Below the pieces are notes generated by a model that ran no database searches, was not told the origin of the DNA, and saw only the letters and a program-made list of their open reading frames with translations. Positions 36,184 to 59,941 of a stretch of 64,000 nucleotides of DNA are shown here, piece by piece. A program made the position numbers and the translations under genes. The stretch covers positions 6,879 to 70,878 of the forward strand of contig JBECKT010000051.1 in NCBI GenBank assembly GCA_040235405.1. Direction: 5' to 3'. This DNA is from Alcanivoracaceae bacterium. GTDB taxonomy: Bacteria > Pseudomonadota > Gammaproteobacteria > Pseudomonadales > Alcanivoracaceae. The stretch's first letter is position 1. Each line of letters starts with the position of its first letter.

Positions 36184-36241
36184 GAGCGGCCGAGCGGCCG
36201 CGATTGTTTCCGGGGTATCGCCGTCGGTCGACGGTTCCTAC
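36181..36241. repeat. REP-like composite palindromic element, copy A
   Basis: TAGGAGC-GCGGCCGAGCGGCCGC-spacer-GCCGTCGGTCGACGG-TTCCTAC. It shares its architecture and most bases with the copies at 61605 and 63146. Confidence 0.8.
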
Positions 36242-37314: not shown

Positions 37315-37392
37315 AACCTGCCTCCACGCGATCACCGCGTTTTATCTGTTGCCTGTGGCCAAGTATAGCCATGACCGGTCAAGGGCGTGTCA

Positions 37393-39947: not shown

Positions 39948-40182
39948 AAGCGCATCCTCTCGCTTGATTTGGTAATGCCATCATCTTAGCTGTGATGGCA
40001 ATCACATTTCATCGCCTTAATCAGGGTGCGGCCCGGATTTTACAATTCACGCCAGCCGACTGTCTGATCGGGCCACCCGCCCGTCTGCTCTTGCTGCCGA
40101 TATTTCTCTGCAGGACCGTCCCCGGTCGCCGCCGCACTCGCCAGCAGGTACAATGCGCGCCCCCGCTGTTTCCGGATACCTG

Positions 40183-42489
40183 ATGTCTGCCCTGTCGATT
40201 CCCCGTCCCCGCACCAGCCTGTTCGGTTACCCCCGATACTGGGCGGAATGCTTTGGCACGGCGCCGTTCCTGCCGATGTCCCGGGCGGAGATGGACCAGC
40301 TTGGCTGGGATTCCTGCGACATCATCATTGTCACCGGCGATGCCTATGTCGACCATCCGTCATTCGGCATGGCAATTGTAGGCCGTTTGCTCGAAGCTCA
40401 GGGGTTCCGGGTCGGCATCATTGCCCAGCCGGACTGGACCTCGAAGGACGCCTTTATGGCGTTGGGCCGGCCGAACCTGTTCTTCGGCGTCGCTGCCGGT
40501 AACATGGATTCGATGATCAATCGCTACACCGCTGATCGCAAACCACGCTCCGACGACGCCTATACCCCGGGCGGCGAAGCCGGCAAGCGCCCGGACCGCT
40601 GCTCGCTGGTGTACTCGCAGCGCTGCAAGGAAGCCTGGTCGGATGTGCCGGTAATTCTCGGCGGCATTGAGGCGTCACTGCGCCGCATTGGCCATTACGA
40701 TTACTGGCAGGACAAGGTGCGCCGTTCCATCCTGCTCGACGCCACCGCTGATCTGTTGCTGTATGGCAATGCCGAACGCGCCGTGGTCGAAGTGGCCCAT
40801 CGTCTGGCCCGCGGCGAAACCATCGACAGCATCACCGATGTTCGCGGCACTGCCTTTATCCGTCGCGACACGCCGGAAGGCTTCTGGGAAATCGATTCCA
40901 CCCGAATCGACCGACCCGGCCGGGTTGATCGCATCATCAATCCCTACGTCAACACCCAGGAGATGGATGAATGTGAAGTGGAACGCCGTAACAACCCGAT
41001 GCTCGGCGTCAGCATCAACGACAACGGCGAACAAGTGGTGCAGTTGCTGCCGCACCCGAAACTGAAACGCGACCAGACCGTGATCCGCCTGCCATCGTTT
41101 GAAAAGGTACGCAACGATCCGGTGCTGTATGCCCACGCCAGCCGGGTACTGCATCTGGAAACCAACCCGGGCAACGCCCGCGCGCTGGTCCAGCGTCATG
41201 CTGAAATTGATGTCTGGCTGAATCCGCCGCCGATTCCGCTGACCACCGAAGAAATGGATTACGTATTTGATCTACCTTACGCCCGCTCGCCGCACCCGGC
41301 TTACGGTGATGCGAAAATTCCGGCCTGGGACATGATCCGCTTTTCCGTCAACATCATGCGCGGCTGCTTCGGTGGCTGCACCTTTTGCTCGATCACTGAG
41401 CACGAAGGTCGCATTATCCAGAACCGCTCGGAAGAATCGGTGCTGCGCGAAATCGAACAGATCCGCGACAAGGTCAAGGGCTTTACCGGCGTGATTTCCG
41501 ATCTCGGCGGGCCCACTGCAAACATGTACCGGATTGCCTGCAAAACCCCGGAAATCGAGGCAGCCTGCCGCAAGCCGAGCTGTGTTTATCCGGGCATCTG
41601 CGAAAATCTCAACACTGATCATTCGCACCTCACCCAGCTGTACCGCAAGGCGCGTAATATCAAGGGTGTGAAAAAAATCCTGATCGCTTCCGGCTTGCGT
41701 TACGATCTGGCAGTGAAAGACCCGGAGTATGTGCGCGAGCTGGTGACGCACCATGTCGGCGGTTATCTGAAGATTGCCCCGGAACATACCGAGCAGGGGC
41801 CGCTGTCGAAGATGATGAAGCCAGGTATCGGTTCCTACGATATTTTTCGCGAGATGTTTGAACGTTTTTCAAAAGAAGCCGGCAAGGAACAGTACCTGAT
41901 CCCCTACTTTATCGCTGCCCACCCGGGCACCACCGATGAAGACATGATGAATCTCGCACTATGGCTGAAGCGCTACGGTTTCCGTGCCGATCAGGTGCAG
42001 GCGTTCTATCCATCGCCGATGGCCAGCGCCACCGCCATGTATTACTCCGGCAAGAACCCGCTGCGCCGGGTGACCTATAAAAGCGATGCCATCGAGTCAC
42101 CGAAGACACCGGAGCAACGCCGCCTGCACAAGGCGTTCCTGCGTTACCACGACCCGAGAAACTGGCCGCTATTGCGCGAGGCACTCAAGCGCATGGGCCG
42201 TGCTGACCTGATCGGTGACGGCAAGCATCAACTGATTCCGAAAACCCAGCCGACCGATGCCCGCGACTATCAGGCGCCACGGCGAAAAAATTCCAGCGAT
42301 GCCCACCAGCGTCGCACCGGCCCCGGCAGCGCGCCGGCCAAAGGCAAGATCCTGACCCAGCACACTGGCCTGCCTCCGCGCGAGCAAACTGCCGACAAGG
42401 CAAGGCCTGCTGGCAGAGCAGCCAGTGGCGGGCGCAAGCCGCCGGGAAGTCCGCGCCAGCGGCCCGGTAAAAACAGAACACCCCACTAG
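40183..42489 (+). CDS. ygiQ: YgiQ-family radical SAM protein (UPF0313)
   Basis: [36 protein letters not shown], radical [12 protein letters not shown], and a basic low-complexity C-terminal tail. Start chosen at ATG 40183. Confidence 0.9.
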
Positions 42490-43736
42490 CGGGAACCATT
42501 AAACTGACGCATGGCGCGGAGAAACTCCTCGGCGCGGAAACGATGCTGATCCGACAGGCTCTGGTACAGGCCGTCCAGCGCCGCGCTATCACCCTGCAAT
42601 TGCTCGGTCAGCAATGCCATCAGCATCAGCACCTGCTCGGCGGTCATGTAGTCGTTAAAGGTTGCATCCAGAGTGTCTGCCTTCATGCGCTGGAGCAGCC
42701 GCCCGGCATCCGGGCCAGACAACTTGCCATTACGCAAGCGCACCAGAGTGTCATCAAGCTGGCGAATCAGTGCGCCACTGGCCTGCTGGATCGCCTCGCG
42801 GCCCTGCTGACTGGCGCCATGCAAACCGGCGACGCCGGTTTTCCAGCGCGCTGCGGCAGCCGGATCACTTGCCTCCAGCATCCAGCCCACCATCAGCAAA
42901 CTGCTGTCATTCAGCCGTACCGCGCCGGGCCGCAACTTGCCGGCGGCGCGTGGCCGCCATTTATCCGCATTCATCGGTGCATGGCAGGCGTGGCAGTCGA
43001 AGAATGCCAGCTCCGGCCACAGCGGCGTTGCCATAAACTGCTGGCCGCGCAAACCCTCGAGCACGTTGCGGGCGCTACGCAACTGCCCGGCCACCCATAG
43101 CTGCAGGGATTGCGGCGACTGTTTGCGGGCACGGTAAGCATCATCATCACGATGATGTGATGGCCACAGCCGGCTGTAGGTGGCCAGCTCGAACTGCAAC
43201 CGCGGGTGCCCGGCGCCCATGATGTCGTGACTGGCAAGCCGCTCACTGTCGCCGACGTGGCAAGCAACACAGACCGAGGCACGCACATCGGCATCCTGCA
43301 ACAGTGTCAGACCGCGGGCGATATTGTCCTCGTGGGTGACCCCCTTCTCCGTATGCGAGGACAGCCAGCGCCGGGAGCCACCGTGACAGGCTTCACAACC
43401 GACACCATCGGTCAGCTGGAAACGCGGGCCGCGTTGTTCCTTCGGCACATAATCACTGTGGCAAGCAAGACAGACCTTCGCTTCGTGAGCCGGACCGATA
43501 CCGAGCTTGGTAGCAATTTCCTTCGAATCACTATTGAGCAAAGTGTTGTAAGCGCCGGCATGAGGATCACGCTGCCCCCAGATCACATACTCGCTATGAA
43601 AAATATTGGCGCCACTGCGCTCGGTGCTGCTGCCATGGCAAACCGAAGAGGCACAACTGGCCACGCCCATATGTTTGTCTGCGGCCAGCACAACCCCGGT
43701 CACAACCAGCAACCCGAGCAGGATGAATCGTTTCAT
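42486..43736 (-). CDS. Periplasmic multihaem c-type cytochrome (4 CxxCH + 1 CxxxxCH) with a helical non-haem C-terminal half
   Basis: Signal peptide [18 protein letters not shown]. Motifs CASSVCH (CX4CH), CLACH, CEACH, CVACH and CHACH. The ATGA start/stop overlaps the upstream gene. Confidence 0.8.
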
Positions 43737-46700
43737 CGTTTGCCTCCGCTGCGGCTGACCTTGTCACTGACAAACCAGGGCTCACCCTTTTCATTCAGGA
43801 ACAGGCGGCGCATTTCTTCCAGTGTGAAAGGCCGCGAGCCATGCCGACCGAATACCGCCACCTGACCACCGGTCTCATCCACCGCCCGATCACGCTCAAG
43901 TCCACGTGACAACGACAACGCCGGATAGCGGGTTTTCGCCCTGGCGATCAACTGCGGCACCGGGGCCGGATTGAAGCCGTAGAAATTCGGCTGACTGGCC
44001 GGCGATGTTAACTGAAGCACTTTGAGGCCACCCTCACCATCGGCCACATAGGCAAATGCAGACGCATTGGTGCTGGCCACGATCACATCATGACTGTCCT
44101 GCAAGGCGCCCTCGGCAGTGAAGCGTTGATACAGCGACAGCTTCTCCGGATTCTCCATATCAATGATGACCAGACCATCCTTGCCGGCCGCAACATAGGC
44201 ATAAGCCCGGGCAATATGAATACCACGGGCCTGATCCAGGGCGATGGTGTTGTCCGGAATCAGGCTGGCCTGCTCCGGCAAGGTCACATCAATAGCGCTG
44301 ACACCACCGGCATGGCTGACCAGCAGATAGCGGAACTGCAAGGCACTGGCACGGACATCCTCAAGAGCAATCTGCCTCACCAGCTTCGGCGCCAATGGCT
44401 CATCCAGATTCAGTATCACCAGCGCCTTTGGTGTAGCGATATAGGCATAATGGCCACCGAGAATGACATGGCGGGCACCGTCCAGTACCCCGTTTTCATT
44501 CCAGGTAACGGCGCGCTCAAGGTGATTATTACGGAACTCGCCATCGGCAAAGGTGGTGATATCGGCAAGGATCAAACCTTCCTCGGCATCGGTAATCACC
44601 GCATAGGAATAGATCGGGTGGAACGGCTGCTCAAGGTTTTCCACTCGCATCAGGTCGCCGACGTTACGCTGTGGCGCCACCGGCTGGGTGGTCGCCAGTG
44701 CCATGCAGGTAGCGTTACGGCTTGGCACCCTGGCGTTGTGACCCAGCGGGCTGAACGGCGCGGTAATGATCCGCTGCGAGACGCCCTTGTTATCAATGCC
44801 GGCGATATCGTAAACGCGGAAGCCGTTCTTGCCTTCGGCGACATACAGATACTCACCGCGCATCTGCACACAACCGGCTCGATCACCGGCATGGCTGTAC
44901 TGCTCCGGCAAATCCAGATCACGGCGCAAGTGCTGCTGATACCAGTCCGGGTAGGCATAGCGATGCAGGTAGGAACCGTAAACGGCTTGCGGCTCGTCCC
45001 ACTCGGTCACCGCCACCGCCTGCAAACCACCCTCACCGCCCACCCAGGCAAACCGGCCGACAAAGTTGATGTAGTTGGTACCAAGCATCAACAGCTGCGC
45101 CATGATCGCATTGTTGTCATTGTCTTCGGACAGATGGCAATCGGTACAGGTCTTGGTTTCCGTACGCCGCTCGGTATGCGGATAGTGCGGATTAAATGCC
45201 TGTGAGCTGTAACCACTGGCCGATACCGGCGGCTGCTGGATATAGATGCGTTCACGGTTCGAGTTGGTAGAGCTTAATACCAATGCCGAGGTAGAACGGG
45301 TCGGCGCAATTCTGGCGTCATGCACCGGGCCACGCTTGCCGAGCATAAACATTTCGTCACGCGCCACCTGCGGATTGTAGGTGGCGTAGTTGCGGGTTTC
45401 TCCGCCTTCGTAATGATGTCGTTCGGTTTTCCAGTTCGCCTCAATCGGCAGGTGGCAGCCGCCGCAGGAGGTAGTCCAGGAGGTGTGGCAGGTATAACAC
45501 TCGAAGTCCTCGTCACGGTGGGCCCGCTGGCCGGATTTTACCGACAGCCCCCACGCCAGCGAGTTGGTATCGCGGCTCATCAGCTTGGCCCGGGCCGCCT
45601 TGGCATTGTACTGACCATGTTTCGGATTGACCGAGTCCTTGACCAGACTCATGGTCCACTCCAGCCCCGGCGTCAACAACGAACGCTGAATCAGTTTGCC
45701 GTTAACCCATTCAAAGCGCTTTTTACCATCCGGGTTGCGCAGTATCGACAGGTCCTGACCACCGGCTGGCGCGGCAGCGCCACTGGTGCGCAGGCTCGGA
45801 TAACTGTCCGCAGTGCCATGGCAGTCCTTGCAGCCAATTTCCACGGCATGACCTACCTCGCCGTACAGATGGCCATTGCCATGGCTGTCCTGACTGAAGT
45901 GGCAGTCCACACAGTGCATGCCGACATCGACATGAATCGAGGAAAGGTGCACCGCCTTCTTGAATTTTTCCGGATCCTCGGCAGAGACCTGATCGCCTTC
46001 GGCATCGAGCAGATTGCCTTCCCGGTCACGCTTGAACACCGCCCGGAAATTCCAGCCATGGCCATGGTAGTCGGCAAACTGGGTGTCTTTCAGCTTCGGG
46101 TTCATCTCCCAGACTGATGAGAGGAAATTCAGATCCCGCCATTTGCCGCGCGCCACCGCCCCTTCCGGATTGCGATCATAGACATCGCGCATTTCCTCGT
46201 CGCTCGGATAATGCTGCTTCTCCGGCCACATGAACGGCGCATCGGCTTCGTAATCCCACATGGTGTAACCGAGGTAGGTGTTCATGAACATGTTCGGCTG
46301 GTGCATGTGACAGACCATGCACTGGCTGGTGGGAATGGCGCGGGTAAACTGATGCTGGATCGGATGACCCGGCTCGTCTTTCGGAATCAGCGGGTCACGG
46401 CTGGCGCTTAATCCCCAGTGGCCATGTTTGGCATAGGGACCGCTGTGGCGCGGATCGCGATCATTGCCATACACCACATGGCAGGAGGCGCAGCCGGAGC
46501 TGCGGTAGTCGCCGGGCTGATCATTGGAGCCAAGGAACCACATCAGCGGATCATTGAGACGGGTTTTAGTGATATTGATCAGCGGCACGGCAATCCGTGC
46601 ACCAGTGCCGGCACCGCGATTCGATTGCTTCACATCCGGCCGGCCCGGTTCCTCCAAACGCTGGATCTGACCAAGTGAATTGGGAATGCCGATTTCCGGG

Positions 46701-47479
46701 AACAGGCTGTTGATATTGCGGCCACCGTCTTCGAACACCCGGAACACATCGGCGGGCTTGACGGTTTCCCAGGCCGGCAGCGGCAGCAGCGTTTTCAGTG
46801 CGCCGAAGCGATGGCTCATGTCTTCTGTCGGCACCATCAGTGGCGTGACCGCTGCCGGTTGTCCGTCGCGGCTATAGGCCTCGCCCAGGATGTAGCGCTT
46901 GTACGGCAAAATGCCGTTGTTATAGGAGGCGCCGCCCCAGAGCATGGCGCCGGTGGCCATAATTGAACGCTCGGCAGCAAGAATCTGCGGCATATGACAA
47001 CTGCCGCAGGCTTCACGAACAATGCGGTAATCGGACGGATTGACGAAGCGGATATATTCCGGCGCTTCCTTGTTCAGCAGGGTGTAACTGATCGGTGGAT
47101 TACTGCTGCGCGGCCAGCGCCATTTGTCGGCATAGTCTGGCAATACATGGGCCTGCTTCATCGCTTCCATAAAGGCCGGATCATCGCGATTGCTGTTCGC
47201 CGGCTTCTGCACACCGGCATTGCCACCATGACAATCGGTGCAGCCCAGGACCACCGCCGGGTTGGCGTGCATGGTCTTGCTATCGGAAGCGCCGTGACAG
47301 CTGCCGCAGCCACTGCTTTTGCGTACCGCTTCGGCGGGTGATTGCCAGGCCGGTGCCGATGGCGCTGCCACCCGGTTTTCCTGCTTGACCACCGGCGCCT
47401 CTACCGCCGGCAACAAAACAGGCAACAACAGCATTAGTGCCGTCATCCATGCCTGCCAGAGCTGAAGTCCGTGTCTCAT
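43733..47479 (-). CDS. Secreted decahaem c-type cytochrome fused to a C-terminal LVIVD-repeat beta-propeller
   Basis: Signal peptide. Ten CxxCH motifs: CGSCH, CTDCH, CGSCH, CASCH, CMVCH, CVDCH, CKDCH, CYTCH, CGGCH, CTDCH. In the last ~450 aa there are at least 6 LVIVD-type repeats (YLYVAEGKNGFRVYDI, EEGLILADIT, YAYIATPKALVILNLDEP, AYAYVAAGKDGLVIIDMENP, AFAYVADGEGGLKVLQL). Confidence 0.85.
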   Translation of the reverse strand: MRHGLQLWQAWMTALMLLLPVLLPAVEAPVVKQENRVAAPSAPAWQSPAEAVRKSSGCGSCHGASDSKTMHANPAVVLGCTDCHGGNAGVQKPANSNRDDPAFMEAMKQAHVLPDYADKWRWPRSSNPPISYTLLNKEAPEYIRFVNPSDYRIVREACGSCHMPQILAAERSIMATGAMLWGGASYNNGILPYKRYILGEAYSRDGQPAAVTPLMVPTEDMSHRFGALKTLLPLPAWETVKPADVFRVFEDGGRNINSLFPEIGIPNSLGQIQRLEEPGRPDVKQSNRGAGTGARIAVPLINITKTRLNDPLMWFLGSNDQPGDYRSSGCASCHVVYGNDRDPRHSGPYAKHGHWGLSASRDPLIPKDEPGHPIQHQFTRAIPTSQCMVCHMHQPNMFMNTYLGYTMWDYEADAPFMWPEKQHYPSDEEMRDVYDRNPEGAVARGKWRDLNFLSSVWEMNPKLKDTQFADYHGHGWNFRAVFKRDREGNLLDAEGDQVSAEDPEKFKKAVHLSSIHVDVGMHCVDCHFSQDSHGNGHLYGEVGHAVEIGCKDCHGTADSYPSLRTSGAAAPAGGQDLSILRNPDGKKRFEWVNGKLIQRSLLTPGLEWTMSLVKDSVNPKHGQYNAKAARAKLMSRDTNSLAWGLSVKSGQRAHRDEDFECYTCHTSWTTSCGGCHLPIEANWKTERHHYEGGETRNYATYNPQVARDEMFMLGKRGPVHDARIAPTRSTSALVLSSTNSNRERIYIQQPPVSASGYSSQAFNPHYPHTERRTETKTCTDCHLSEDNDNNAIMAQLLMLGTNYINFVGRFAWVGGEGGLQAVAVTEWDEPQAVYGSYLHRYAYPDWYQQHLRRDLDLPEQYSHAGDRAGCVQMRGEYLYVAEGKNGFRVYDIAGIDNKGVSQRIITAPFSPLGHNARVPSRNATCMALATTQPVAPQRNVGDLMRVENLEQPFHPIYSYAVITDAEEGLILADITTFADGEFRNNHLERAVTWNENGVLDGARHVILGGHYAYIATPKALVILNLDEPLAPKLVRQIALEDVRASALQFRYLLVSHAGGVSAIDVTLPEQASLIPDNTIALDQARGIHIARAYAYVAAGKDGLVIIDMENPEKLSLYQRFTAEGALQDSHDVIVASTNASAFAYVADGEGGLKVLQLTSPASQPNFYGFNPAPVPQLIARAKTRYPALSLSRGLERDRAVDETGGQVAVFGRHGSRPFTLEEMRRLFLNEKGEPWFVSDKVSRSGGKR

Positions 47480-47485
47480 AATGCC

Positions 47486-49216
47486 TCAGTACGTCAATAT
47501 CAGGTTGCCGAGAATCGAATAGCGCGAGTCCCGCTCGAACAGGTCGTCAAAACCTTCGCCGGGCAGCAACTGCGCCACCGACAAACGGCCGACAATGTTC
47601 TGGATCGCCAGCGGCCGCCAGATAATGGCAGCGGAAATATCCCAACCGATTTCCCGGTCGATATTGTCCTGCTGGCGTAACACCTCGATCACTTCGGTGC
47701 GATCAAAGGCAAGATGATTGGCGTTGAAACTGAGCCGGGCAGTCGGGGTCAGGTCCAGATCGGCACCAACACCGAGCAACCGCAGTCCCGGATTGGTGAA
47801 GTTGGACTGGCCGTGCTCTTTCGACGAACGCAGGTTCGGCAACAAACCATTACGCGTTGACAGGGTTACCCCGCCGCCGGCAATAAAGGGCACGCCCTGA
47901 CGGATCCAGAAGCTGGTGTCGGCACCGGCAATAATCGGGTTCTCGAACACCGCATCGAAGCCGGTCTCGACTTTATCAAACGGATTGCGATCACCGGAAG
48001 CATGCACACCGGTGGCGCGCAGACGAATCCAGTCAAAATCAATACCCGCTTCAAAGGCAGCAAAGCTGGCGCGCACCTCGGTGGTCTCATCGTTCATGAC
48101 CCCGGGGGCGTTGCGGCCACTGGCGGCGTACAACGACGTGGTCAGATTCAGGCGGCCAAGATGGCCATCACCGTTGTAACCCAGATAGGTGACGTCATAG
48201 CTGCGCGGCACTTCCCGGCCAAGCGAGGCGGGACGGGCAATAAAGCCGTTATCGTCATAGAAGAAACTGTCCTCCCGATTACGGTTATGCAGCAGGCTGA
48301 ACTGGCTGATAAACCCCAGCTTGAGAAAATCCTGCCAGTACAGGTTGGCAACGAAAACATCATCGTCGCGGAAACGGGCGGTAACATCGTTCAGGCCGCT
48401 GTTGGTGTCTTTTTCCAGACGCCGGAACCAGGCCAGGTTGTACTGGAAGATATTGTTGTCCCGGGTGCCGAACAGGCGCACACCGAACGGGCTGTCCTGA
48501 AACAGAAAGCCGCGAAAATCCGCATTGAACGGCTGGATGCCAACGCGAATACTGTCGAAGTCGTATCGGTCGGAGACATTACGGATGTGGTAGTCAACAA
48601 AAGCGCCCTGCACGCCGACATGGCCATCGGTACGGGTATCGCCGTCACGCGGGTCGATATACAGGGCACGGACCTCCTCCACCTCAGTGCGGTTGAAGTT
48701 AAACACCGGGATAAAGCGGAACTCCCAGTCCGGCGGTCGAAACACGGTATCGCCACGTAACCAGACCAGTTCCACCAACAGGTTCTGATTGAAAGTCACC
48801 TGCTCGCCACTGCCGAACACATCAATATCACCGCTGTCGCCGGTGGTCTGGTTGCCTACCGGGGTGGGAATATCACGCAGCTCCAGCACGGTATCGGATA
48901 CTGCGGTCAGCGAGAAGAACCATTCGCCCCGGACCGGCTTGTCACCCTTTAAGACATTACGTTGGTAGGGATTCCACAGGCTGTGGTTGTAACCCGGCAG
49001 GCTATCAACAATGCGCCAGCGATCCGGCACTGCCTGCAACGGCTGATCCTGAAACAGCGGCGCGGCGGGAATGGCATTGTCGTCGCACAGCACTTGCTGA
49101 CGCGCTTCAACCTTTTTGCCCGGCAGACGAATTTGCGGCTGCTGATCCGGCTCAGGACATTCCGCCTGTGCCAGCAGCGGCATCAGCAGCAACATGAAAA
49201 GCGGGAGGCGATGCAT
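47486..49216 (-). CDS. Probable outer-membrane beta-barrel protein
   Basis: Signal peptide MHRLPLFMLLLMPLLAQA. Alternating hydrophobic beta-strand patterning runs throughout, rich in aromatics, Gly, Asn and Asp. The C-terminus ends with an aromatic residue (...GNLILTY). I cannot assign a family with confidence. Confidence 0.6.
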   Translation of the reverse strand: MHRLPLFMLLLMPLLAQAECPEPDQQPQIRLPGKKVEARQQVLCDDNAIPAAPLFQDQPLQAVPDRWRIVDSLPGYNHSLWNPYQRNVLKGDKPVRGEWFFSLTAVSDTVLELRDIPTPVGNQTTGDSGDIDVFGSGEQVTFNQNLLVELVWLRGDTVFRPPDWEFRFIPVFNFNRTEVEEVRALYIDPRDGDTRTDGHVGVQGAFVDYHIRNVSDRYDFDSIRVGIQPFNADFRGFLFQDSPFGVRLFGTRDNNIFQYNLAWFRRLEKDTNSGLNDVTARFRDDDVFVANLYWQDFLKLGFISQFSLLHNRNREDSFFYDDNGFIARPASLGREVPRSYDVTYLGYNGDGHLGRLNLTTSLYAASGRNAPGVMNDETTEVRASFAAFEAGIDFDWIRLRATGVHASGDRNPFDKVETGFDAVFENPIIAGADTSFWIRQGVPFIAGGGVTLSTRNGLLPNLRSSKEHGQSNFTNPGLRLLGVGADLDLTPTARLSFNANHLAFDRTEVIEVLRQQDNIDREIGWDISAAIIWRPLAIQNIVGRLSVAQLLPGEGFDDLFERDSRYSILGNLILTY

Positions 49217-51147
49217 TATTTGCCTCCGCAGGGTGTCTGTTCATTGCTGTCGAGAAACGGTGCCTGCGGACACTGCACATAACGCAGCCGGGTGCCGTGC
49301 GGGGCCAGCTGGTCGGCGCGCATCATTACCGGCGCATTGTTGATGCTGCCAAGCAGCTCACCGGCCTGATGCACGGACAGAAACGAAATCATGTCATCCT
49401 GATCAATGCCGTCACCGGATACCCCAATGGCACCGACCAGTGTGCTGCCACGGTAGATCGGCACACTGCCGGGGAAAATCTGGGTGCCATTCGCCACCGG
49501 GTCGACATTGCCAGCGGATGTCACACGACTGATGGCGCTGCACCCCTCGGCGACATCAACACCACTCAGGCCGGCGGCAAAAGCAACATGACCAATAAGC
49601 TGGTTATAGACCAGATCCAGCTGCAGGCCGGTGGAGAACGGACTCCACTGCCCTTCCGGTTTCGATAAAGGTCCGGGCGGCGCACTGCGCAGACCATCCG
49701 GGAAATACGGCCGCGACAGATTACCGCCGGCGCGATCACTAAAAGCGTAGGCGCCATCGGCAAGCGCTGAAGGCAGATCCAGAAAGGTGCGTAGCGCATC
49801 AACGTAATCACCGATATCAACACTGGTTGCCACGGTCGGCGCACCAGCGACCAGTACCGGGCCAAGATAATCCGCCGTCGGCAGCGCCTGTAACTCTGCG
49901 GCCGCCTGCGTGCCTGAATAAAATGCAGCAGTACGCGCCTTCTGCAACGACACATCAGTACCGAACAGTGGCGCATCGCGGGTCCGCACCAGCCCCAGCA
50001 CCACACCATTACGATCCACCACACTGATGCTGACCCGTGCCTGACTTCCAAGTGGCCGACGAATCTGGGCCCGGGCGCGACTGGCAATCAACAGCGCCTG
50101 ATCCAGCACTGCAGTGACTTCAGTCTGGGTCAGCGCACCGGGGCCATCACTGGCGGCGACTGGCGGGAAGCGCGGCGTGTCGGTGGCATCTACCAACACG
50201 AAGGCATCGCGGCCGGGGAAAAAGTTTTCGGTATCGGCACGAATACCGGAACCGCTTTGGGTAAATGTCTGACCGGCGATAATGCCGCCACCGGCATTGA
50301 AGTAACCCGGCACACTAACCAGCGCACCGGTCAGACTGGCAAACGCCGGCACCGGCAGAGACCGGGTCTGCACCATCGCCACGCTCATATCGCTGTAACG
50401 CAGCTGCTTGCCTTCAACGGTGATGCGTTCGGCACGACGGTCCGCCGGCGCCAGCAAACCGCGACTACCAGCCAGCGCCACCACTTCATCCAGTGACTGA
50501 TCGCGATCAAACAGACTGTCATCGAAACTGTAGCGATCATCCACCACTACACCGATACCGCCGATAACGGTGCCATCGCGATACAGCGGGAAGCCGCCCG
50601 GATCAGCGGACAACCCCAGCGGAGCATGCTTGGGGCCGTGGCTGCCATCGGTCACACGCACCGTCAGATCGGAACAGGCCAGCTGGGAGAACTGCACGCC
50701 AAACAGGGGCCCGGCCGGCTGATTGCGCTCGCCCGGATTGAAATGCTCCTGCACGATCTGGCTGGCGGTGCGTGAACTGAAGGCATTGCCCTCGCTGGAC
50801 AGATAAGCGCCGGTGACCGCCTTGCTGATCGCTGCCAAGGTGGCCGGAATAAAGCTGATATTTTCCAGACCGCCGCTGACCGGATAGGGCGATGCAATAG
50901 TTACCGCATCAACTGCGCCAACCATCTGATACACGGCCAGAATATTGCCAACCCGGTCAGACACGGCAATGGTAGCCGCGACGCCACGCTGATCCGCCTC
51001 CAGTGCAGCCGCTGCAATAATGCTTTCGACATCCGCAGCGGAGAGAAAGCTGGCCGGGCTGACACAGCTGCCATCACAGCCGCCATTCGATAACGAATCG
51101 CCGCCACAACCGGCCAGCAGCAGACACAGCCCGATCAGCCGTTTCAC
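49216..51147 (-). CDS. Lipoprotein with two tandem GlcG/HbpS-like (DUF336, haem-binding/haem-degrading superfamily) domains
   Basis: Lipobox LLLAGC after a GTG start. Domain 1: ATIAVSDRVGNILAV...GGFPLYRDGTVIGGIGVVVD. Domain 2: SISVVDRNGVVLGL...LQKARTAAFYS...GSVPIYRGSTLVGAIGVSGDGIDQDD. Compare E. coli GlcG: GGVPVVVDGQIIGAVGVSG. Confidence 0.7.
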   Translation of the reverse strand: MKRLIGLCLLLAGCGGDSLSNGGCDGSCVSPASFLSAADVESIIAAAALEADQRGVAATIAVSDRVGNILAVYQMVGAVDAVTIASPYPVSGGLENISFIPATLAAISKAVTGAYLSSEGNAFSSRTASQIVQEHFNPGERNQPAGPLFGVQFSQLACSDLTVRVTDGSHGPKHAPLGLSADPGGFPLYRDGTVIGGIGVVVDDRYSFDDSLFDRDQSLDEVVALAGSRGLLAPADRRAERITVEGKQLRYSDMSVAMVQTRSLPVPAFASLTGALVSVPGYFNAGGGIIAGQTFTQSGSGIRADTENFFPGRDAFVLVDATDTPRFPPVAASDGPGALTQTEVTAVLDQALLIASRARAQIRRPLGSQARVSISVVDRNGVVLGLVRTRDAPLFGTDVSLQKARTAAFYSGTQAAAELQALPTADYLGPVLVAGAPTVATSVDIGDYVDALRTFLDLPSALADGAYAFSDRAGGNLSRPYFPDGLRSAPPGPLSKPEGQWSPFSTGLQLDLVYNQLIGHVAFAAGLSGVDVAEGCSAISRVTSAGNVDPVANGTQIFPGSVPIYRGSTLVGAIGVSGDGIDQDDMISFLSVHQAGELLGSINNAPVMMRADQLAPHGTRLRYVQCPQAPFLDSNEQTPCGGK

Positions 51148-52820
51148 GGCATCACCTCGGGCAGGTCGGCATGATCCAGTTCAAACTGGTGATAGTTGTG
51201 ACAGCTGATGCAACCGGAAAGCAGCCCCTGCTTCTGCTGCTGGCCGACATGACATTCCTGACAGACGGCAATGTCCGGCATCAACACATCTGCAGTCTCC
51301 ATGGACTCGTTGGCGGCATGGCAGTCGGCGCATTCGGTTTGGGTGTGACGAACATGGGGAAATTCGCCGGAGACAAACCAGTTTTCATTCAGCCGTACCG
51401 GTTTGACAAACCACTGGGGCGGCTGCTCGCTGACCCTGTCCACTTCATGACAGCTGACACAGGCACGGCGCTCGAACATATCCTCTGCCACCGCCTGACT
51501 CTTTTTTTCCACCCAGGCGACGCCTTCGCGCTGCAACTGGCTGAGGTTATCGCGCTGGCCCGGTCTTAATGCCCGGATATCACCGGCGTCAGCGCGGTCC
51601 TGGATAAAGCGGCTGCTGTAGTACTCACGCAGATTAGCCAGCACCTGATCCGGCTTACCATGCGGCACGACCCGATTCGGATCGACTGGATCAAACGCCA
51701 GGCCATGGCAGCGGGCACAGTGTTGCTCCATCTTCACCGGCGCCATGTTAATGCCGTCCAGTGCCATCTCATGGCAACTGTCGCAACTCAGCACTTCCCA
51801 GTCGCCGTCATTATTCTTGATGCCTTCGACATCCAGATGCCCGGCGTGATCAAATTTCAGGTTGCTGTTATCGTGCAGGGATTCATCTACCGTCAGCCGC
51901 GGGCTCTGCAACCACTCGCGACTATCGTCCTGCCACTGCAGCATGCTCAGGCGGAACGCTGGATGATCGGCATGGAAGTCCGTTGCCTTGCCGACCTGTG
52001 GCTCACTGCCCATGCGCTGGTCAAGGCTGGCATGGCAATCGGCACAGAAGCGCTGATCCTCAAACACCATGCGCTGCTCGCCGTTATGTTCATGATGACA
52101 AGAGGCACAGCGCTCGCCATCAAACAGACCGGCATCCGGATGCCCTGCCGGCACATGCAAAGCGGTTTCTTCATGACAGGCAACGCAGGTATCGTTGCTG
52201 ACTTTCTCAAACGGTTTGGTGTGACAGGCCTGACAATCCTTGCCAATGGTGCTGTGCACCGAATGCAACTCGCCACTCAACCACAGGCTGTCATCCGGCA
52301 ACGGCGTATTACGCAGCACATTCTGAAATTCCGGCTTTAGCGTCACCAGTGCCGGCAACAACAGCGCTGCAACCAGCAACACAAGGAACAGCGCCCAGGC
52401 CCAGCGACGCGGACGCCAGAGCGTCAATGCATCCAGCCGGGTAACAAACTTCGCCGGATCAATCGACGGCGCTTCCTGTTGCTCCAGCACCTCCAGACTG
52501 AGCGCCAGATCAACACCGTCCGGCGCGGCAATCACGATCAGGCGATAGTCACCGATCAGGATCTGGTCACCGGTATTCAGCACCGCCATCTTGCAGCTGC
52601 GACCATTTACCGTGATGCCGGTACTGGCCAGCGCACGAATCCGGAACTGACCGGCACTCAGGGAGATTTCCGCGTGCTGGTAGGCAACCCGGTCGCCGGG
52701 CAACAACAATTCCTGATCGGTACCACGACCTATGCTGAGCTGATCAACCGCCAGCTCTTCATCCTTGTAGCTTCGATTCTGACCGCTGCCAGCGCCGAGA
52801 CGGCGTATCAATACATACAT
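51144..52820 (-). CDS. FHA domain - single TM helix - periplasmic decahaem c-type cytochrome
   Basis: N-terminal FHA-like LSIGRGTDQELLLPGDRVAYQHAEI...ITVNGRSCKMAVLNTGDQILIGDYRLIV. TM helix RRWAWALFLVLLVAALLLPALV (positive-inside). Ten CxxCH motifs: CQACH, CVACH, CASCH, CADCH, CDSCH, CARCH, CVSCH, CADCH, CQECH, CISCH. The start is ATG 52820 or TTG 52850. Confidence 0.8.
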   Translation of the reverse strand: MYVLIRRLGAGSGQNRSYKDEELAVDQLSIGRGTDQELLLPGDRVAYQHAEISLSAGQFRIRALASTGITVNGRSCKMAVLNTGDQILIGDYRLIVIAAPDGVDLALSLEVLEQQEAPSIDPAKFVTRLDALTLWRPRRWAWALFLVLLVAALLLPALVTLKPEFQNVLRNTPLPDDSLWLSGELHSVHSTIGKDCQACHTKPFEKVSNDTCVACHEETALHVPAGHPDAGLFDGERCASCHHEHNGEQRMVFEDQRFCADCHASLDQRMGSEPQVGKATDFHADHPAFRLSMLQWQDDSREWLQSPRLTVDESLHDNSNLKFDHAGHLDVEGIKNNDGDWEVLSCDSCHEMALDGINMAPVKMEQHCARCHGLAFDPVDPNRVVPHGKPDQVLANLREYYSSRFIQDRADAGDIRALRPGQRDNLSQLQREGVAWVEKKSQAVAEDMFERRACVSCHEVDRVSEQPPQWFVKPVRLNENWFVSGEFPHVRHTQTECADCHAANESMETADVLMPDIAVCQECHVGQQQKQGLLSGCISCHNYHQFELDHADLPEVMP

Positions 52821-52824
52821 GGCA

Positions 52825-53715
52825 TCACCAGTAGAAGAACACGCTGACAATATGCGCCGTCAGCGTTGCCAGCAGTGCCAGCGTCAGCGGGATATGGCAG
52901 TACAACCAGATCTCCATCAGCCCCTGCAGACGGATATCTTTAAGTAACTGTTTCACCAGTCTGGCTTTACGCGAGACCAGATCGATCAGCTCCTGCAGCA
53001 GCGCCGCTTCCTTGGGATCCGTGCTGCGTGACAGCAACCCGGTCAACTCATCCAGTAAGCGTTGCTGGTGCGAATTACTGACCCGCTTCCAGCTCTTCTG
53101 CTTTTTCCTGACCTCGCTGATCATCATTCGCGAACGGTCACGCCCACCGAGTTGCTGCCAGACGCCACCGCCAACCTGAAACAATTGAATGGCGGAAATC
53201 ACCATCCGGTCTGCCGGTGAGCCGAGACCTTCAACAATCAGACTGGCCTTGCGATCAATATCGGCAATCTCGCGGAAGATCAGATCGCGAGTCATGCCAT
53301 CACGGTTGCGGGTAATACGATTCGGGTAACGCCAGTACACCCAGCCACCATAAAAGCCGCTGACGATAACCAGCACCATCAACAGCCAGGCCAGTGTGTG
53401 AATGTTCAAACCAAACTGAAAGCCGCTATGCAGCGTGCCCACCACCAGCAGTGAACCGCCCAGGTAAACGTGCGCAGACAACCAACCCTTGACGCTGCCG
53501 ATACGTGAGTAATAGGCGCGCTTGCGCACCCCGAACAGGGTCAGCCAGACAATCAGCAATGCGGCAATAGTGCCAAGGGTATAACCCAGCCAGGTACCGC
53601 CATTAGGCAACCCGATCGGTTCGTGCCAGACGTAGGCAACAACACTGGCCAGTACCAGCACCAGCGCAAACCAGAACCAGAAGCCGCCACGGTGAGAGAG
53701 GAAAGAGCCGTGCAT
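52825..53715 (-). CDS. Five-TM membrane protein with two H-x13-H pairs (candidate di-haem cytochrome b)
   Basis: The ATG at 53715 lies 7 nt after GGGAGGA. TM3 is AHVYLGGSLLVVGTLH (His codons at 53470-53472 and 53428-53430). TM5 is CHIPLTLALLATLTAH (His codons at 52894-52896 and 52852-52854). A ~130-aa soluble helical loop lies between TM4 and TM5. Confidence 0.6.
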   Translation of the reverse strand: MHGSFLSHRGGFWFWFALVLVLASVVAYVWHEPIGLPNGGTWLGYTLGTIAALLIVWLTLFGVRKRAYYSRIGSVKGWLSAHVYLGGSLLVVGTLHSGFQFGLNIHTLAWLLMVLVIVSGFYGGWVYWRYPNRITRNRDGMTRDLIFREIADIDRKASLIVEGLGSPADRMVISAIQLFQVGGGVWQQLGGRDRSRMMISEVRKKQKSWKRVSNSHQQRLLDELTGLLSRSTDPKEAALLQELIDLVSRKARLVKQLLKDIRLQGLMEIWLYCHIPLTLALLATLTAHIVSVFFYW

Positions 53716-53717
53716 GC

Positions 53718-56099
53718 TCAATCCTCCCTGACCAGTTCAATAAACTGCTCCGGACTGATCCGCACCGCCGCGCCGGTCGGGCAGGCGCGCACACAGGCCG
53801 GGCCACCCTTGAGGTTGGCACACATGTCACACTTCACTGCTCGCTTCGGTGCGTCCTTGGCCTTGACCTTTTTGTGCTCGGCGCCGAACAGCACCCGGCT
53901 CCACAGCCCCGGCTGGGAACCACCGATCGGCGCCATCTGGATCACACCATAGGGGCAGTTGCTTTCACAGTTACCACAGCCGATGCAGTTGTCGGCAATC
54001 ACCACCTCGCCACTGGCATTACGACTGATCGCATCCGGCGGGCAATCTTTCATGCAATGCGGATGTTCGCAGTGACGACAGGAAGTCGGCACATGGATTG
54101 AGGCATAGCTTGGCCCGGCCTCACGATTCAGCCGCGAGGTACCACCGTGGGTGGAAGCGCAGGCGGTCTCACAGTTATCGCAACGCACGCACAGGGATTC
54201 GTCGATCAGCAACACATCGGTGGCTTCGCCCAGACCCTGACGCATCAGGAACGACAGCAGCTCACCACCTTCCGAGGAAGATTCCATGCTGGCATTGGCA
54301 CGCAGCCGCGCCTGCAGCTGCGTCTGCACCTGCGCCTTCAGTTTCGGGTCTCGCTCCAGCAAGGCGAGGAACGGCTCGCTTTTCATGACCACGGTTTCGG
54401 TCGGCACCACGGCGCGTACCGAAGCGGTACGGCGGGAATTACCAAGCAACCCCATTTCACCGACATATTTGCCCGCCGGCACATAGGACAGCACCACCTC
54501 GCGGCCTTGCAGGTAACGGGAAACCGTCAGTGAACCACGCCGCACCAGATGCAGCTCGTCACCGCTCTCGCCTTCGGCGAACAGGACCTCGCCGGGAGCG
54601 TACTGACGCAGCTCTGCCGAGTTCACCAGATCGGCCAGATCCTCCAGATTGGCGTTCGGCGCAAACTGGGAATGAATCGCACGCAGGATAAACACCTGAT
54701 CAATCCGCCGCCGCACTTCATCCACCGACGACAGCAATCGCAACATGGTCCGGCGCGGGGTTTCCACCAGCACACAATAGCGACCGGCATAAACCGTGGC
54801 ATTACGACGCCGGCCGGAAATCAGGCCCATCTCGCCAAAGAACTGACCTTCGCCAATGGTAACCCGTTTGCCGGTCTGTTCATCAATCTCGACCTCCACC
54901 GAACCTTCCACGACTGAGTAGAACGAGTTGGTGTAGTCATTGCGAGAGAAGATCACCTCGCCCGCCTTCGGCATGTGCACTTCGCTTTCCAGAATCAGCT
55001 CACGGAAACGCAGGCTGTTGACGGGACCGAAACAGAGCACATTGTTTTTGATCTTCTCCAGCGTCTGCTCGACGTCCAGTCCGAATGGCAAGCCAGAGAA
55101 CTTCTTTGCCAGCAAGCCATGATCCACCGGCTTGATATCGCGACCGAGAATATGCTCGATCACTTCATAACCCTGATTCATGGCCTGCTTGATCAGCGGA
55201 TAACCAGCCAATGCGCCGATCACATACAAGCCCGGCACATTCGATTCGTACTGATGAGTCAGTTCCGGCACCGCATTGGTTGATTTATTGGGAAACTGGA
55301 TGCCACAGGATTCGACAAAATCACGCGGCGGAATAGCGCCCAACCGGGCAATGATCCGATCCACTGGCACCTGCACTTCACCTTCGCCGGTACTCAGCGA
55401 CACCTGGGCCCGATGCTCACCATTACCCTGCACTTCAATACTACGCAGACTGCTGTTGAAAAATACCCTGATACGGCCGCGCTCAATGGCATCCTCAAGC
55501 AGGCTCAGGTTTCCTTCTTTGGCACGGGCAAATTCGTCGCGGCGATTGATCAGCGACACCTTGTTCTGGCGGGCCAGTGCCAGCGCGTTTTCAATCGCCG
55601 AATCCCCGGCGCCGACCACCATGATTTCTTCGTTCTGATATTCGTCCGGATCATCCAGCTGGTATTGCACAAATGGCTGGTCTTCACCCGGCACACCGAG
55701 CTTGCGTGGATTACCCTGCAGACCAATGGCCAGCACCACATGCTTTGCTCGCACGCTTTTGCCGCTGCGTGTCTGCAGCACGAAATCACCGCGTTGGCCA
55801 CTGATGGCCGTGACATCAGCATTCCAGCCAACCTTGATGCCAAGTTTTTTGGCATTCTTCAGCCAGACGGCAAGGATGTCCTCACGACTGCCAGCATCAA
55901 ATGGCAGGCTGCTACGCAACGGCAGAAGGCCTGGCTCCGCCATGACGTGCTTGCCTTTCTGATAGCGCTGAATGGTATTGGCCAGATGGGTCGTGCTTTC
56001 CAGCAACAGGTGCGACAACCCCAGTTCAGCGGCACGGCCAGCGGCGCTGAGGCCCGCCGGGCCGGAGCCGACAATAACAACTTCAAAACGGTTTTCCAT
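53718..56099 (-). CDS. Cytoplasmic fusion protein: FAD/NAD(P)-dependent pyridine-nucleotide-disulfide-type oxidoreductase + 2 cyclic-nucleotide-binding domains + four-cluster [4Fe-4S] ferredoxin
   Basis: Dinucleotide motifs VVIVGSGPAGLSAAGRA and IMVVGAGDSAIENA. cNMP motifs FFGEMGLISGRRRNATVYA and YVGEMGLLGNSRRTASVRA. Cys motifs CVRCDNCETAC, CRHCEHPHCMKDCP, CIGCGNCESNCP and CDMCANLKGGPACVRACP. No signal or Tat motif. Confidence 0.85.
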   Translation of the reverse strand: MENRFEVVIVGSGPAGLSAAGRAAELGLSHLLLESTTHLANTIQRYQKGKHVMAEPGLLPLRSSLPFDAGSREDILAVWLKNAKKLGIKVGWNADVTAISGQRGDFVLQTRSGKSVRAKHVVLAIGLQGNPRKLGVPGEDQPFVQYQLDDPDEYQNEEIMVVGAGDSAIENALALARQNKVSLINRRDEFARAKEGNLSLLEDAIERGRIRVFFNSSLRSIEVQGNGEHRAQVSLSTGEGEVQVPVDRIIARLGAIPPRDFVESCGIQFPNKSTNAVPELTHQYESNVPGLYVIGALAGYPLIKQAMNQGYEVIEHILGRDIKPVDHGLLAKKFSGLPFGLDVEQTLEKIKNNVLCFGPVNSLRFRELILESEVHMPKAGEVIFSRNDYTNSFYSVVEGSVEVEIDEQTGKRVTIGEGQFFGEMGLISGRRRNATVYAGRYCVLVETPRRTMLRLLSSVDEVRRRIDQVFILRAIHSQFAPNANLEDLADLVNSAELRQYAPGEVLFAEGESGDELHLVRRGSLTVSRYLQGREVVLSYVPAGKYVGEMGLLGNSRRTASVRAVVPTETVVMKSEPFLALLERDPKLKAQVQTQLQARLRANASMESSSEGGELLSFLMRQGLGEATDVLLIDESLCVRCDNCETACASTHGGTSRLNREAGPSYASIHVPTSCRHCEHPHCMKDCPPDAISRNASGEVVIADNCIGCGNCESNCPYGVIQMAPIGGSQPGLWSRVLFGAEHKKVKAKDAPKRAVKCDMCANLKGGPACVRACPTGAAVRISPEQFIELVRED

Positions 56100-57632: not shown

Positions 57633-58439
57633 ATGATTCCGCTGACCTCAACCCCCGACCAGACCACCGCGCTGAATGCCGTCCTGGAACGTCCTGGCAT
57701 CTGGCGCGGCCGCCCTGCCGCCAATACCGAGCTGGCCAGCGACAGCGGCTTCCCTGCCCTGAATGACGCCCTGCACCTGCGTGGCTGGCCGGCGGCCGGG
57801 CTGGTCGAGCTGCTTTGCAGTGGCCCCTGCCCACAGGCTTTGCGGCTGATGCTGCCGGTCATGGCCAGCCGGGCCGACGGCCTGGTACTACTGGCCAACC
57901 CACCGGCCCGGCCACGCGCGGAAACCCTGCAACAGGCCGGCATCAAGAGCCAGCGCCTGCTGGTGATGCGCAGTGAACGTCAGGACACCTTGCTGCAGGC
58001 CTGTCACGAAGCGCTCGCCAGTGGCGCCGTCAGCACACTGGTGATCTGGCTACCGGAAAACATGGACGACCAGACCAGCCTGCGGCGCCTGCATCTGGCC
58101 GCCCGCGAAGGTCGCTGTCTGCTGGTGGCCATGCGCCCGGCCAGCGTTGCCGATCGTCCCTCCCCGGCCAGTTTGCGCCTGCGCCTGCGGGCGCAACCGC
58201 CGGCCCATCTGGCGGTGGATGTGATCAAGCAGCCTGGCGGCTGGGGTGGCCAGCAGATCCATCTGGCCCTGCTGCCGGAACGCCTGAGCCAGCCACTGGC
58301 GGCCAGCCGTGATATGCCGGCACCGCCGCGGCTACGGGAAAAACAGAAAGCCGCACCTGGCTACCGCGACCCGGACAGCCGTTTTGCCTGGCGCCGCCCG
58401 GCAGCGACGCTGCCCAGCCTGCAAAACCTGCCGTTCTGA
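57633..58439 (+). CDS. imuA: Translesion-synthesis-associated protein ImuA (SulA/RecA-fold-like)
   Basis: GIWRG...SGFPALNDALHLRGWPAAGLVELL is typical of ImuA. It is first in the imuA-imuB-dnaE2 arrangement. Confidence 0.75.
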   Translation: MIPLTSTPDQTTALNAVLERPGIWRGRPAANTELASDSGFPALNDALHLRGWPAAGLVELLCSGPCPQALRLMLPVMASRADGLVLLANPPARPRAETLQQAGIKSQRLLVMRSERQDTLLQACHEALASGAVSTLVIWLPENMDDQTSLRRLHLAAREGRCLLVAMRPASVADRPSPASLRLRLRAQPPAHLAVDVIKQPGGWGGQQIHLALLPERLSQPLAASRDMPAPPRLREKQKAAPGYRDPDSRFAWRRPAATLPSLQNLPF

Positions 58440-58469
58440 TTTGTTGCATGACATACCCGGCGGTGGTCC

Positions 58470-59939: not shown

Positions 59940-59941
59940 CC

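Follow-up and report, generated by a model that had tools for sequence, protein, structure and literature searches.

The 64-kb stretch of DNA analysed here (64,000 nucleotides, hereafter the window) comes from an Alcanivoracaceae bacterium (contig JBECKT010000051.1 of assembly GCA_040235405.1) and is 93% identical to a metagenome-assembled genome (MAG) of Alcanivoracaceae. It harbors a tightly packed minus-strand operon of seven genes, g1 to g7, in which neighboring genes overlap or are separated by no more than 6 nt. The third of these genes, g3 (51144..52820, minus strand), is an open reading frame (ORF) of 558 amino acids plus stop, for which an earlier note, made from the sequence alone, had proposed a forkhead-associated (FHA) domain fused through one transmembrane (TM) helix to a decahaem cytochrome c. 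This three-part architecture, in which one TM helix joins an FHA domain in the cytoplasm to a decahaem domain in the periplasm, is borne out by Pfam, AlphaFold2 (AF2), Foldseek, hydropathy and sequence motifs, and its occurrence by chance is excluded by a wide margin.

Gene model and domain architecture of g3

The start of g3 as annotated, an ATG located 4 nt past the stop codon of the upstream 5-TM gene g2, is upheld by three lines of evidence: the N-termini of the homologues, the substitutions at third codon positions and the conservation of the family. The N-termini of 68 out of 81 homologues align at g3 Met1. A longer version initiated at the TTG at 52850 was rejected, since it would overlap g2 and the homologues begin at the ATG instead. 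A true start downstream of the FHA segment is excluded by the third-position substitution bias together with the family-wide conservation. In relatives at 81-99% amino acid identity, the differences over codons 1-111, by first, second and third codon position, amount to 3/0/18, 5/0/23 and 12/8/56; this bias indicates that the FHA segment is translated and under purifying selection.

The cytoplasmic FHA domain spans residues 1-111 (52488..52820, minus strand), as delimited by Pfam, PDB searches, AF2, Foldseek and conservation. Pfam PF00498 matches residues 29-90 with an E-value of 6.5e-10 and 39.7 bits, above the cut-off of 20.7, and a phmmer search of the PDB retrieves the FHA domains of GarA and OdhI at E 2e-8. 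In the AF2 model of g3, which was built on 49 homologues, residues 1-111 adopt an 11-strand beta-sandwich with a predicted local distance difference test (pLDDT) score of 90-96. The top 50 Foldseek hits of this model in the PDB are all FHA domains, the best being GarA and OdhI (E 4e-8; template-modelling score, TM(target), 0.73-0.80). The Pfam FHA profile also matches 44 of 49 diverse family members. Profile, predicted fold and structural comparison therefore agree on the N-terminal assignment, for which the earlier note had called for a Pfam check.

A linker (residues 112-136; 52413..52487, minus strand) with a pLDDT of ~50-55 and low column conservation leads to the TM helix (residues 137-162; 52335..52412, minus strand), which is defined by hydropathy, AF2 and conservation. 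The prediction of a positive-inside helix after the FHA domain is confirmed: g3 has one single hydrophobic segment, at about residues 137-162, with RPRR just before it, and AF2 places a helix at residues 137-161. Three positions of this region (R138, W142 and P156) are near-invariant. The argument advanced for a cytoplasmic N-terminus (N-in) is sound, as the protein has no signal peptide, the charges follow the positive-inside rule and haem c attachment takes place in the periplasm.

The remainder of the protein (residues 163-558 and the stop codon; 51144..52334, minus strand) is the periplasmic decahaem c domain, recognized by its motifs and by Pfam. The count of ten CxxCH motifs proved exact: they lie between residues 196 and 541, account for 20 of the 21 cysteines, and are all invariant among 49 homologues sharing 29-74% identity. 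The same 49 sequences have ten additional invariant histidines (189, 222, 245, 286, 325, 328, 387, 489, 492 and 544), which fits ten bis-His haems. Pfam detects Cytochrome_C7 (46.7 bits), Cytochrom_c3_2 (43.9 bits) and also Paired_CXXCH_1; judged by these motifs and profiles, g3 is a multihaem cytochrome c of the c3/c7 superfamily. A sequence search of the PDB with the haem domain returned nothing useful. Membership of the NapC/NirT family was considered and rejected: the Cytochrom_NNT profile has no match in g3 at E<=0.01, and g3 has ten haems rather than a tetra- or pentahaem domain directly after the TM helix, its first haem motif being ~34 residues past the helix.

Degeneracy of the phosphothreonine pocket

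When g3 is aligned to GarA, the motif VSRRHAE of the latter corresponds to VAYQHAE, with Ala46 at the position of the canonical Ser. The replacement of the Ser of SxxH by Ala, read earlier from the sequence (VAYQHA in g3, VSRRHA in GarA), is therefore real. Furthermore, the S-L-N-G-T loop of GarA is shortened to S-T-G-I-T in g3 by a one-residue deletion that takes out the Asn. The residues G31, R32 and H49 are retained in the FHA domain of g3, and are conserved in 100%, 99% and 98% of 81 syntenic homologues, respectively. In these homologues the canonical Ser position is occupied by Ala in 70%, by Arg in 17% and by Ser in 2.5%. Among 149 more distant representatives, R32 is found in 85% and H49 in 79%, and only 6% have Ser at the Ser position; some family members lack both the GR pair and the His (P0089). 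Of the three canonical phosphopeptide contacts, these alignments leave the family with Arg32 only: the Asn is missing and the Ser is replaced in about 94-97% of members. The family has in addition a specific arginine, Arg44, located five residues ahead of His49 and present in 94% of the 81 syntenic homologues and 60% of the 149 representatives.

Within Alcanivoracaceae, the FHA domain of g3 is 81-88% identical, compared with 71-75% for g3 as a whole. Between orders, g3 varies more than any other gene of the cluster, with 34-41% identity versus 57-67% for g1 and g6 (window against loci L003, L004 and L008).

Family size and earlier mentions

The survey of the FHA-multihaem architecture proposed in the earlier note has uncovered a large family. 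A profile search with the g3 family against 1.84 billion representatives, with matches at E<=1e-30 clustered at 50% identity, yielded 2008 clusters. For the best 150 of these 2008 clusters, nearly all representatives are 545-620 amino acids long, with a match that begins at profile position 1, and exactly ten CxxCH motifs are present in 147 of 149 of the best representatives. A homologue search provided more than 160 full-length relatives, most of them with precomputed FHA and cytochrome domains and with no name beyond 'cytochrome c3 family protein' or 'FHA domain-containing protein'.

The claim of novelty stands in part. The literature yielded no characterised FHA-multihaem cytochrome, but the architecture itself is already on record. 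The 2023 pangenome of the Gallionellaceae tabulates a cytochrome cluster 403, a 'Forkhead-associated protein' with 10 CXXCH (PMC10734462), and a 2026 preprint describes in Ferrigenium straubiae an 'NHC' cluster with an FHA-multihaem cytochrome, of unknown function there, in the same three-gene neighborhood (10.64898/2026.01.22.701106). This preprint counts nine haems in the Ferrigenium protein, and reports an adjacent 5-TM protein without InterPro match or redox motif and an adjacent [4Fe-4S] protein (10.64898/2026.01.22.701106). Judging by their descriptions, both proteins, neither of which has an assigned function, likewise consist of an FHA domain in the cytoplasm that one TM helix connects to a multihaem domain in the periplasm; the Ferrigenium cluster is flanked by nirK and SHP, whereas g4-g7 occupy this place in the window. 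The literature on LVIVD, HbpS or cyclic nucleotide monophosphate (cNMP)-binding domains in association with multihaem cytochromes contained nothing on the g1-g7 cluster, and the uet cluster of Tenderiales is unrelated. Sequence analysis adds several points that we report here for the first time: how large the family is, its conserved setting of seven genes, the putative identity of g2 as a di-haem b protein, the predicted four-cluster, NAD(P)H and cNMP anatomy of g1, and the loss, throughout the family, of the Ser and Asn that contact phosphothreonine.

Conservation of the gene cluster

Relatives of g3 were located in 159 of the 185,579 species genomes scanned with a query alignment made from the closer g3 homologues, and neighbor counts were taken from the best 80 loci. 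Colinear neighbors in these 80 loci are g2 (77), g1 (75), g4 (72), g5 (67) and g6 (59), and g2 is adjacent to g3 in 77 of the 80; most absences appear to be at contig ends. These loci belong to Alcanivoracaceae, Woeseiaceae, Rudaea, Dokdonella and other Lysobacterales, Nitrosomonas, Methylococcales and Alphaproteobacteria, and g7 was also found at loci L082 and L083.

In the more distant loci, too, g1-g2-g3 proves to be the invariant core of the cluster. Parvularcula has only this core and no g4-g7, and in a Burkholderiaceae MAG the order is g2-g7 followed by g1, beside ccm genes. The lineages without g4, Nitrosomonas and Methylococcales (L027, L037 and L063), keep g1, g2, g3, g5 and g6, which indicates that g4 is dispensable for the core and the outer-membrane module.

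The Parvularcula core is framed by a CHASE2 nucleotide cyclase and a metallophosphoesterase upstream and by CcmF/CcmH downstream. In Parvularcula marina (L081, 2275-5550), the CHASE2 adenylate/guanylate cyclase and the metallophosphoesterase are directly upstream of the g1 homologue; the position of this cyclase beside the cNMP-domain protein g1 is a hint of cyclic-nucleotide control of the conduit. The genes ccmF, ccmH and ccmI and a thioredoxin-like gene adjoin the cluster in two distant lineages (L081, 10891-13352; L082, 1-4077), suggesting a dedicated haem-attachment system.

The membrane protein g2 and the flavoprotein g1

The gene g2 (52825..53721, minus strand) encodes a 5-TM inner-membrane protein without Pfam match. 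Its start is probably the ATG at 53715, giving 296 amino acids; residue numbers used here follow the 298-amino-acid ORF. Residues 132-265 form a cytoplasmic insert of ~130 residues, and R66-K67-R68, after TM2, is invariant. Five histidines (H84, H98, H108, H276 and H290) are invariant in all 77 g2 sequences from syntenic loci. Four of them make up two H-x13-H pairs, H84/H98 on TM3 and H276/H290 on TM5, each pair along one helical face, and these two spacings are also invariant in 40/40 g2 sequences. According to the positive-inside rule and the AF2 secondary structure (pLDDT of the model, 83), g2 would be N-in, with H84/H276 predicted to lie towards the cytoplasm and H98/H290 towards the periplasm. 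Pairs of histidine ligands on two helices are the pattern of di-haem transmembrane cytochromes b, such as the cytochrome b of bc1 and the NOX/FRD proteins, and g2 is probably a di-haem b cytochrome as well. It has thousands of homologues, all 'hypothetical' and none with a Pfam domain. No relative was found in Pfam, NCBIfam or the PDB, where sequence and profile searches gave only noise, and Foldseek of the g2 model against the PDB gave no significant match (best E 0.15); SpNOX (8qt6), examined as a possible fold relative, ranks only 49th with E 1.7 and was discarded. With neither a sequence nor a fold relative, g2 would constitute a new family.

The gene g1 (53718..56099, minus strand) encodes a flavoprotein with two cNMP-binding domains and a ferredoxin domain. 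Residues 1-320 are a TrxR-like/FNR-like flavoprotein module with flavin adenine dinucleotide (FAD) and NAD(P)H motifs (two dinucleotide-binding motifs) and without the redox CxxC. The two cNMP-binding domains (residues 345-600) have intact phosphate-binding cassettes. Residues 630-790 form a HycB/HydN-like ferredoxin domain with 16 invariant cysteines in four ferredoxin motifs, a number sufficient for four [4Fe-4S] clusters. The protein lacks a signal peptide, in keeping with a cytoplasmic location.

Envelope genes and surroundings of the cluster

The four downstream genes encode envelope proteins. The product of g4 (49216..51147, minus strand) is a lipoprotein (lipobox LAGC) with HbpS/GlcG-like domains (Pfam HbpS-like, E 4.7e-22), and g5 (47486..49216, minus strand) encodes a secreted protein of 576 amino acids with a signal peptide, a C-terminus ending in LILTY and no Pfam match; from this C-terminus, typical of outer-membrane proteins, we infer that g5 may be an outer-membrane beta-barrel. 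The largest of them, g6 (43733..47479, minus strand), is a secreted protein of 1248 amino acids combining an LVIVD beta-propeller with 10 CxxCH motifs. No other gene of the cluster is as well conserved (60-67% amino acid identity across orders), and g6 is a candidate terminal or catalytic subunit; a PDB sequence search with g6 found no relative, and a weak local match links it to ExtM of the Geobacter selenite/tellurite operon. Finally, g7 (42486..43736, minus strand) encodes a secreted, cytochrome c554-like protein of 416 amino acids with 4 CxxCH motifs and one CX4CH motif (Pfam Cytochrome_C554, E 2e-10).

Three further features of the window lie close to the cluster. A YgiQ-type radical SAM gene (Radical_SAM_N and DUF3362; 40153-42489, plus strand) converges on g7 with a 4-nt overlap, and a ferrochelatase gene (36238-37335, minus strand) is found ~5 kb from the haem-rich operon. 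On the other side, what appears to be an imuA-like / imuB (IMS family) / dnaE2-like error-prone polymerase cassette (57633-63145, plus strand) adjoins the divergent TPR gene of the cluster.

Discussion

Based on the domain, synteny and conservation evidence presented here, we give about even chances to the reading that we favor, in which g3 is a bitopic inner-membrane decahaem c cytochrome, acting as the periplasmic wire of a three-subunit redox module and equipped with an FHA domain for docking. Electrons from NAD(P)H would enter g1 via FAD and move along its four [4Fe-4S] clusters; g2 would then carry them through the membrane on two bis-His b-haems, liganded by H84/H276 on the cytoplasmic side and by H98/H290 on the periplasmic side, and the ten bis-His c-haems of g3 would receive them and lead them into the periplasm. 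In most lineages, the electrons may pass onward to the c554-like g7, the decahaem propeller g6, the barrel g5 and the lipoprotein g4. Such an outward flow would be downhill in redox potential and helped by the membrane potential, and would conserve no energy. The presence of two cNMP-binding domains in g1 suggests control by cNMP, and the cost of an unregulated NAD(P)H drain would explain such regulatory domains, namely the cNMP sensors of g1 and perhaps the FHA domain.

In this module, the FHA domain would be placed at the cytoplasmic end of the g3 anchor helix, near the cytoplasmic insert of g2 and the site where g1 is expected to dock. From there it could tether g3 to g1, to this insert or to both, much as SctD uses its FHA domain to dock cytoplasmic partners. 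The degenerate phosphothreonine pocket favors docking or assembly independent of phosphorylation over control by a Ser/Thr kinase, and we regard this role as having roughly as much in its favor as against it. Several points weigh on the other side. The conserved Arg32 and Arg44 could together make a functional pocket for a phosphate or an acidic residue, and the closest FHA relatives, GarA and OdhI, are kinase-regulated. The putative di-haem b assignment of g2 draws solely on the spacing of invariant histidines. The Ferrigenium preprint has electrons running in the opposite direction, from Fe(II) to quinone (10.64898/2026.01.22.701106). Lastly, the system occurs mostly in aerobes, which raises the question of the acceptor for exported electrons.

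Comparison with known systems puts these proposals into perspective. The FHA domain of SctD (YscD/PrgH/EscD) is devoid of phosphothreonine-binding residues and serves as a docking platform. Like SctD, g3 has its FHA domain on the cytoplasmic side of a single TM helix and its other domain in the periplasm, and the Pfam family Yop-YscD_cpl (PF16697) matches 44 of 49 members of the g3 family at E<=0.01. Nevertheless, g3 itself is not retained as a member of SctD: its PF16697 score of 28.5 bits is below the cut-off of 33.2, the periplasmic part builds rings in SctD and is a decahaem cytochrome in g3, and there is no secretion-system context here. GarA and OdhI, the closest FHA proteins to g3 by both sequence and structure, bind their enzyme targets in a phospho-independent manner through the phosphothreonine pocket. 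They are however soluble single-domain proteins with the canonical Arg, Ser and Asn and an N-terminal phospho-switch, whereas the FHA domain of g3 is tethered to the membrane and has lost Ser and Asn.

As regards electron transfer, the Hmc/Tmc/Nhc complexes of sulfate reducers link an iron-sulfur (Fe-S) protein in the cytoplasm, through a cytochrome b in the membrane, to a multihaem cytochrome c in the periplasm, which is the same transmembrane electron logic as proposed for g1-g2-g3. In contrast to these complexes, g2 is not homologous to the NarI-like cytochrome b nor g1 to the HdrD/CCG proteins, g3 is itself anchored in the membrane and carries an FHA domain, and on the cytoplasmic side its partner is a flavoprotein that has NAD(P)H motifs and cNMP domains. 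In NOX and MsrQ-Fre, a cytoplasmic NAD(P)H-flavin donor passes electrons to two stacked bis-His b-haems of the H-x13-H type and from there to an extracytoplasmic acceptor. The spacing of the histidines on two helices of g2 is of this type, but g2 has 5 TM helices instead of 6, no PF01794 match and no significant structural match; in the proposed scheme an Fe-S wire is interposed and the acceptor is a decahaem cytochrome. By analogy, g1-g2-g3 may be akin in working to Hmc/Tmc or to NOX/MsrQ-Fre, with no homologous membrane subunit. Finally, g3 resembles NapC/NirT/NrfH/CymA and CbcL/ImcH in being an inner-membrane-anchored multihaem c cytochrome of the kind that feeds periplasmic carriers, but differs from NapC/NirT/NrfH in the lack of Cytochrom_NNT, its ten haems, its 136-residue N-terminal cytoplasmic domain and the absence of an evident quinone site.

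Three other explanations have to be weighed. The first, which we consider unlikely, is that the FHA domain is a genuine phosphothreonine reader and that a Ser/Thr kinase encoded elsewhere marks g1, g2 or another protein and thereby switches the conduit. The bona fide FHA fold, with the kinase-regulated GarA and OdhI as nearest relatives, the 79-100% conservation of Gly31-Arg32 and His49, and the extra conserved Arg44, which might stand in for the lost Ser contact, are all compatible with such a reader, and an unchecked NAD(P)H drain would call for tight regulation. Yet just 2.5-6% of the members have the Ser that contacts the phosphate, and the Asn that would contact the peptide is gone; in Rad53 FHA1, the equivalent S85A change reportedly abolishes binding. 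A search with a weak regular expression, confined to the 64-kb window and to 8 kb on either side of 80 related loci, turned up no Hanks-kinase motif. Moreover, g1 already provides two cNMP sensor domains as regulatory input.

A slightly less plausible explanation is that g2 and g3 constitute a quinone-linked module, that is, a quinol:cytochrome c or cytochrome c:quinone oxidoreductase similar to CymA/NrfH or CbcL, with the FHA domain acting only as a tether and g1 being a sensor or regulator or feeding a separate reaction; the process would be Fe(II) oxidation according to the preprint (10.64898/2026.01.22.701106). The layout of a single TM helix and a multihaem domain indeed recalls the NapC/NirT proteins (10.64898/2026.01.22.701106), quinone-reactive complexes typically contain a di-haem b membrane subunit, and the core module is present in Fe(II) oxidisers and nitrifiers. 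However, the lack of a Cytochrom_NNT match and the distance of the first haem motif from the TM helix speak against this affiliation, and g2 matches no known quinone-reactive cytochrome b family. In addition, g1, with its predicted NAD(P)H-FAD-4x[4Fe-4S] chain and no signal peptide, is co-encoded in 75 of the 80 loci, usually directly upstream of g2. Such an obligate partner is hard to explain unless g1 exchanges electrons with the membrane subunits.

We also give little credence to the FHA domain being an allosteric effector that binds g1 independently of phosphorylation and gates electron entry, possibly together with cNMP, as GarA and OdhI do on KGD and OdhA: its nearest sequence and structural relatives are indeed GarA and OdhI bound to the enzymes that they target, both Arg32 and Arg44 are conserved and the domain is better conserved than g3 overall in Alcanivoracaceae, but the data at hand do not separate gating from simple docking, Arg32 drops to 85% in distant members and the GR pair and His are lost in some of them.

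Returning to the docking module, we further suggest, tentatively and with more doubt than confidence, that the complete cluster specifies a widespread, hitherto unrecognised trans-envelope conduit that bypasses quinones. It would start at NAD(P)H and lead via FAD, the four [4Fe-4S] clusters, a di-haem b protein of a new family and g3 to a multihaem/beta-propeller module at the outer membrane, gated by cNMP and with the degenerate FHA domain as an assembly or gating element. The combination of a cNMP-sensing NAD(P)H/Fe-S protein (g1) and a membrane protein with cytochrome-b-like histidine pairs (g2) would suggest a regulated, quinone-free route across the inner membrane. The cluster is found in environmentally important groups, including relatives of Alcanivorax, Woeseiaceae, Nitrosomonas, methanotrophs, Lysobacterales and iron oxidisers, and cultured carriers are available in Alcanivorax sp. 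1008, Dokdonella immobilis, Dokdonella sp. MW10, Nitrosomonas supralitoralis and Parvularcula marina. Kinase signalling, secretion systems and transporters are the settings in which FHA domains are known, and a respiratory electron wire would be a new context for them. With about 2000 sequence clusters, the FHA-anchored multihaem cytochromes would represent a new element coupling cytoplasm to periplasm in electron-transfer complexes.

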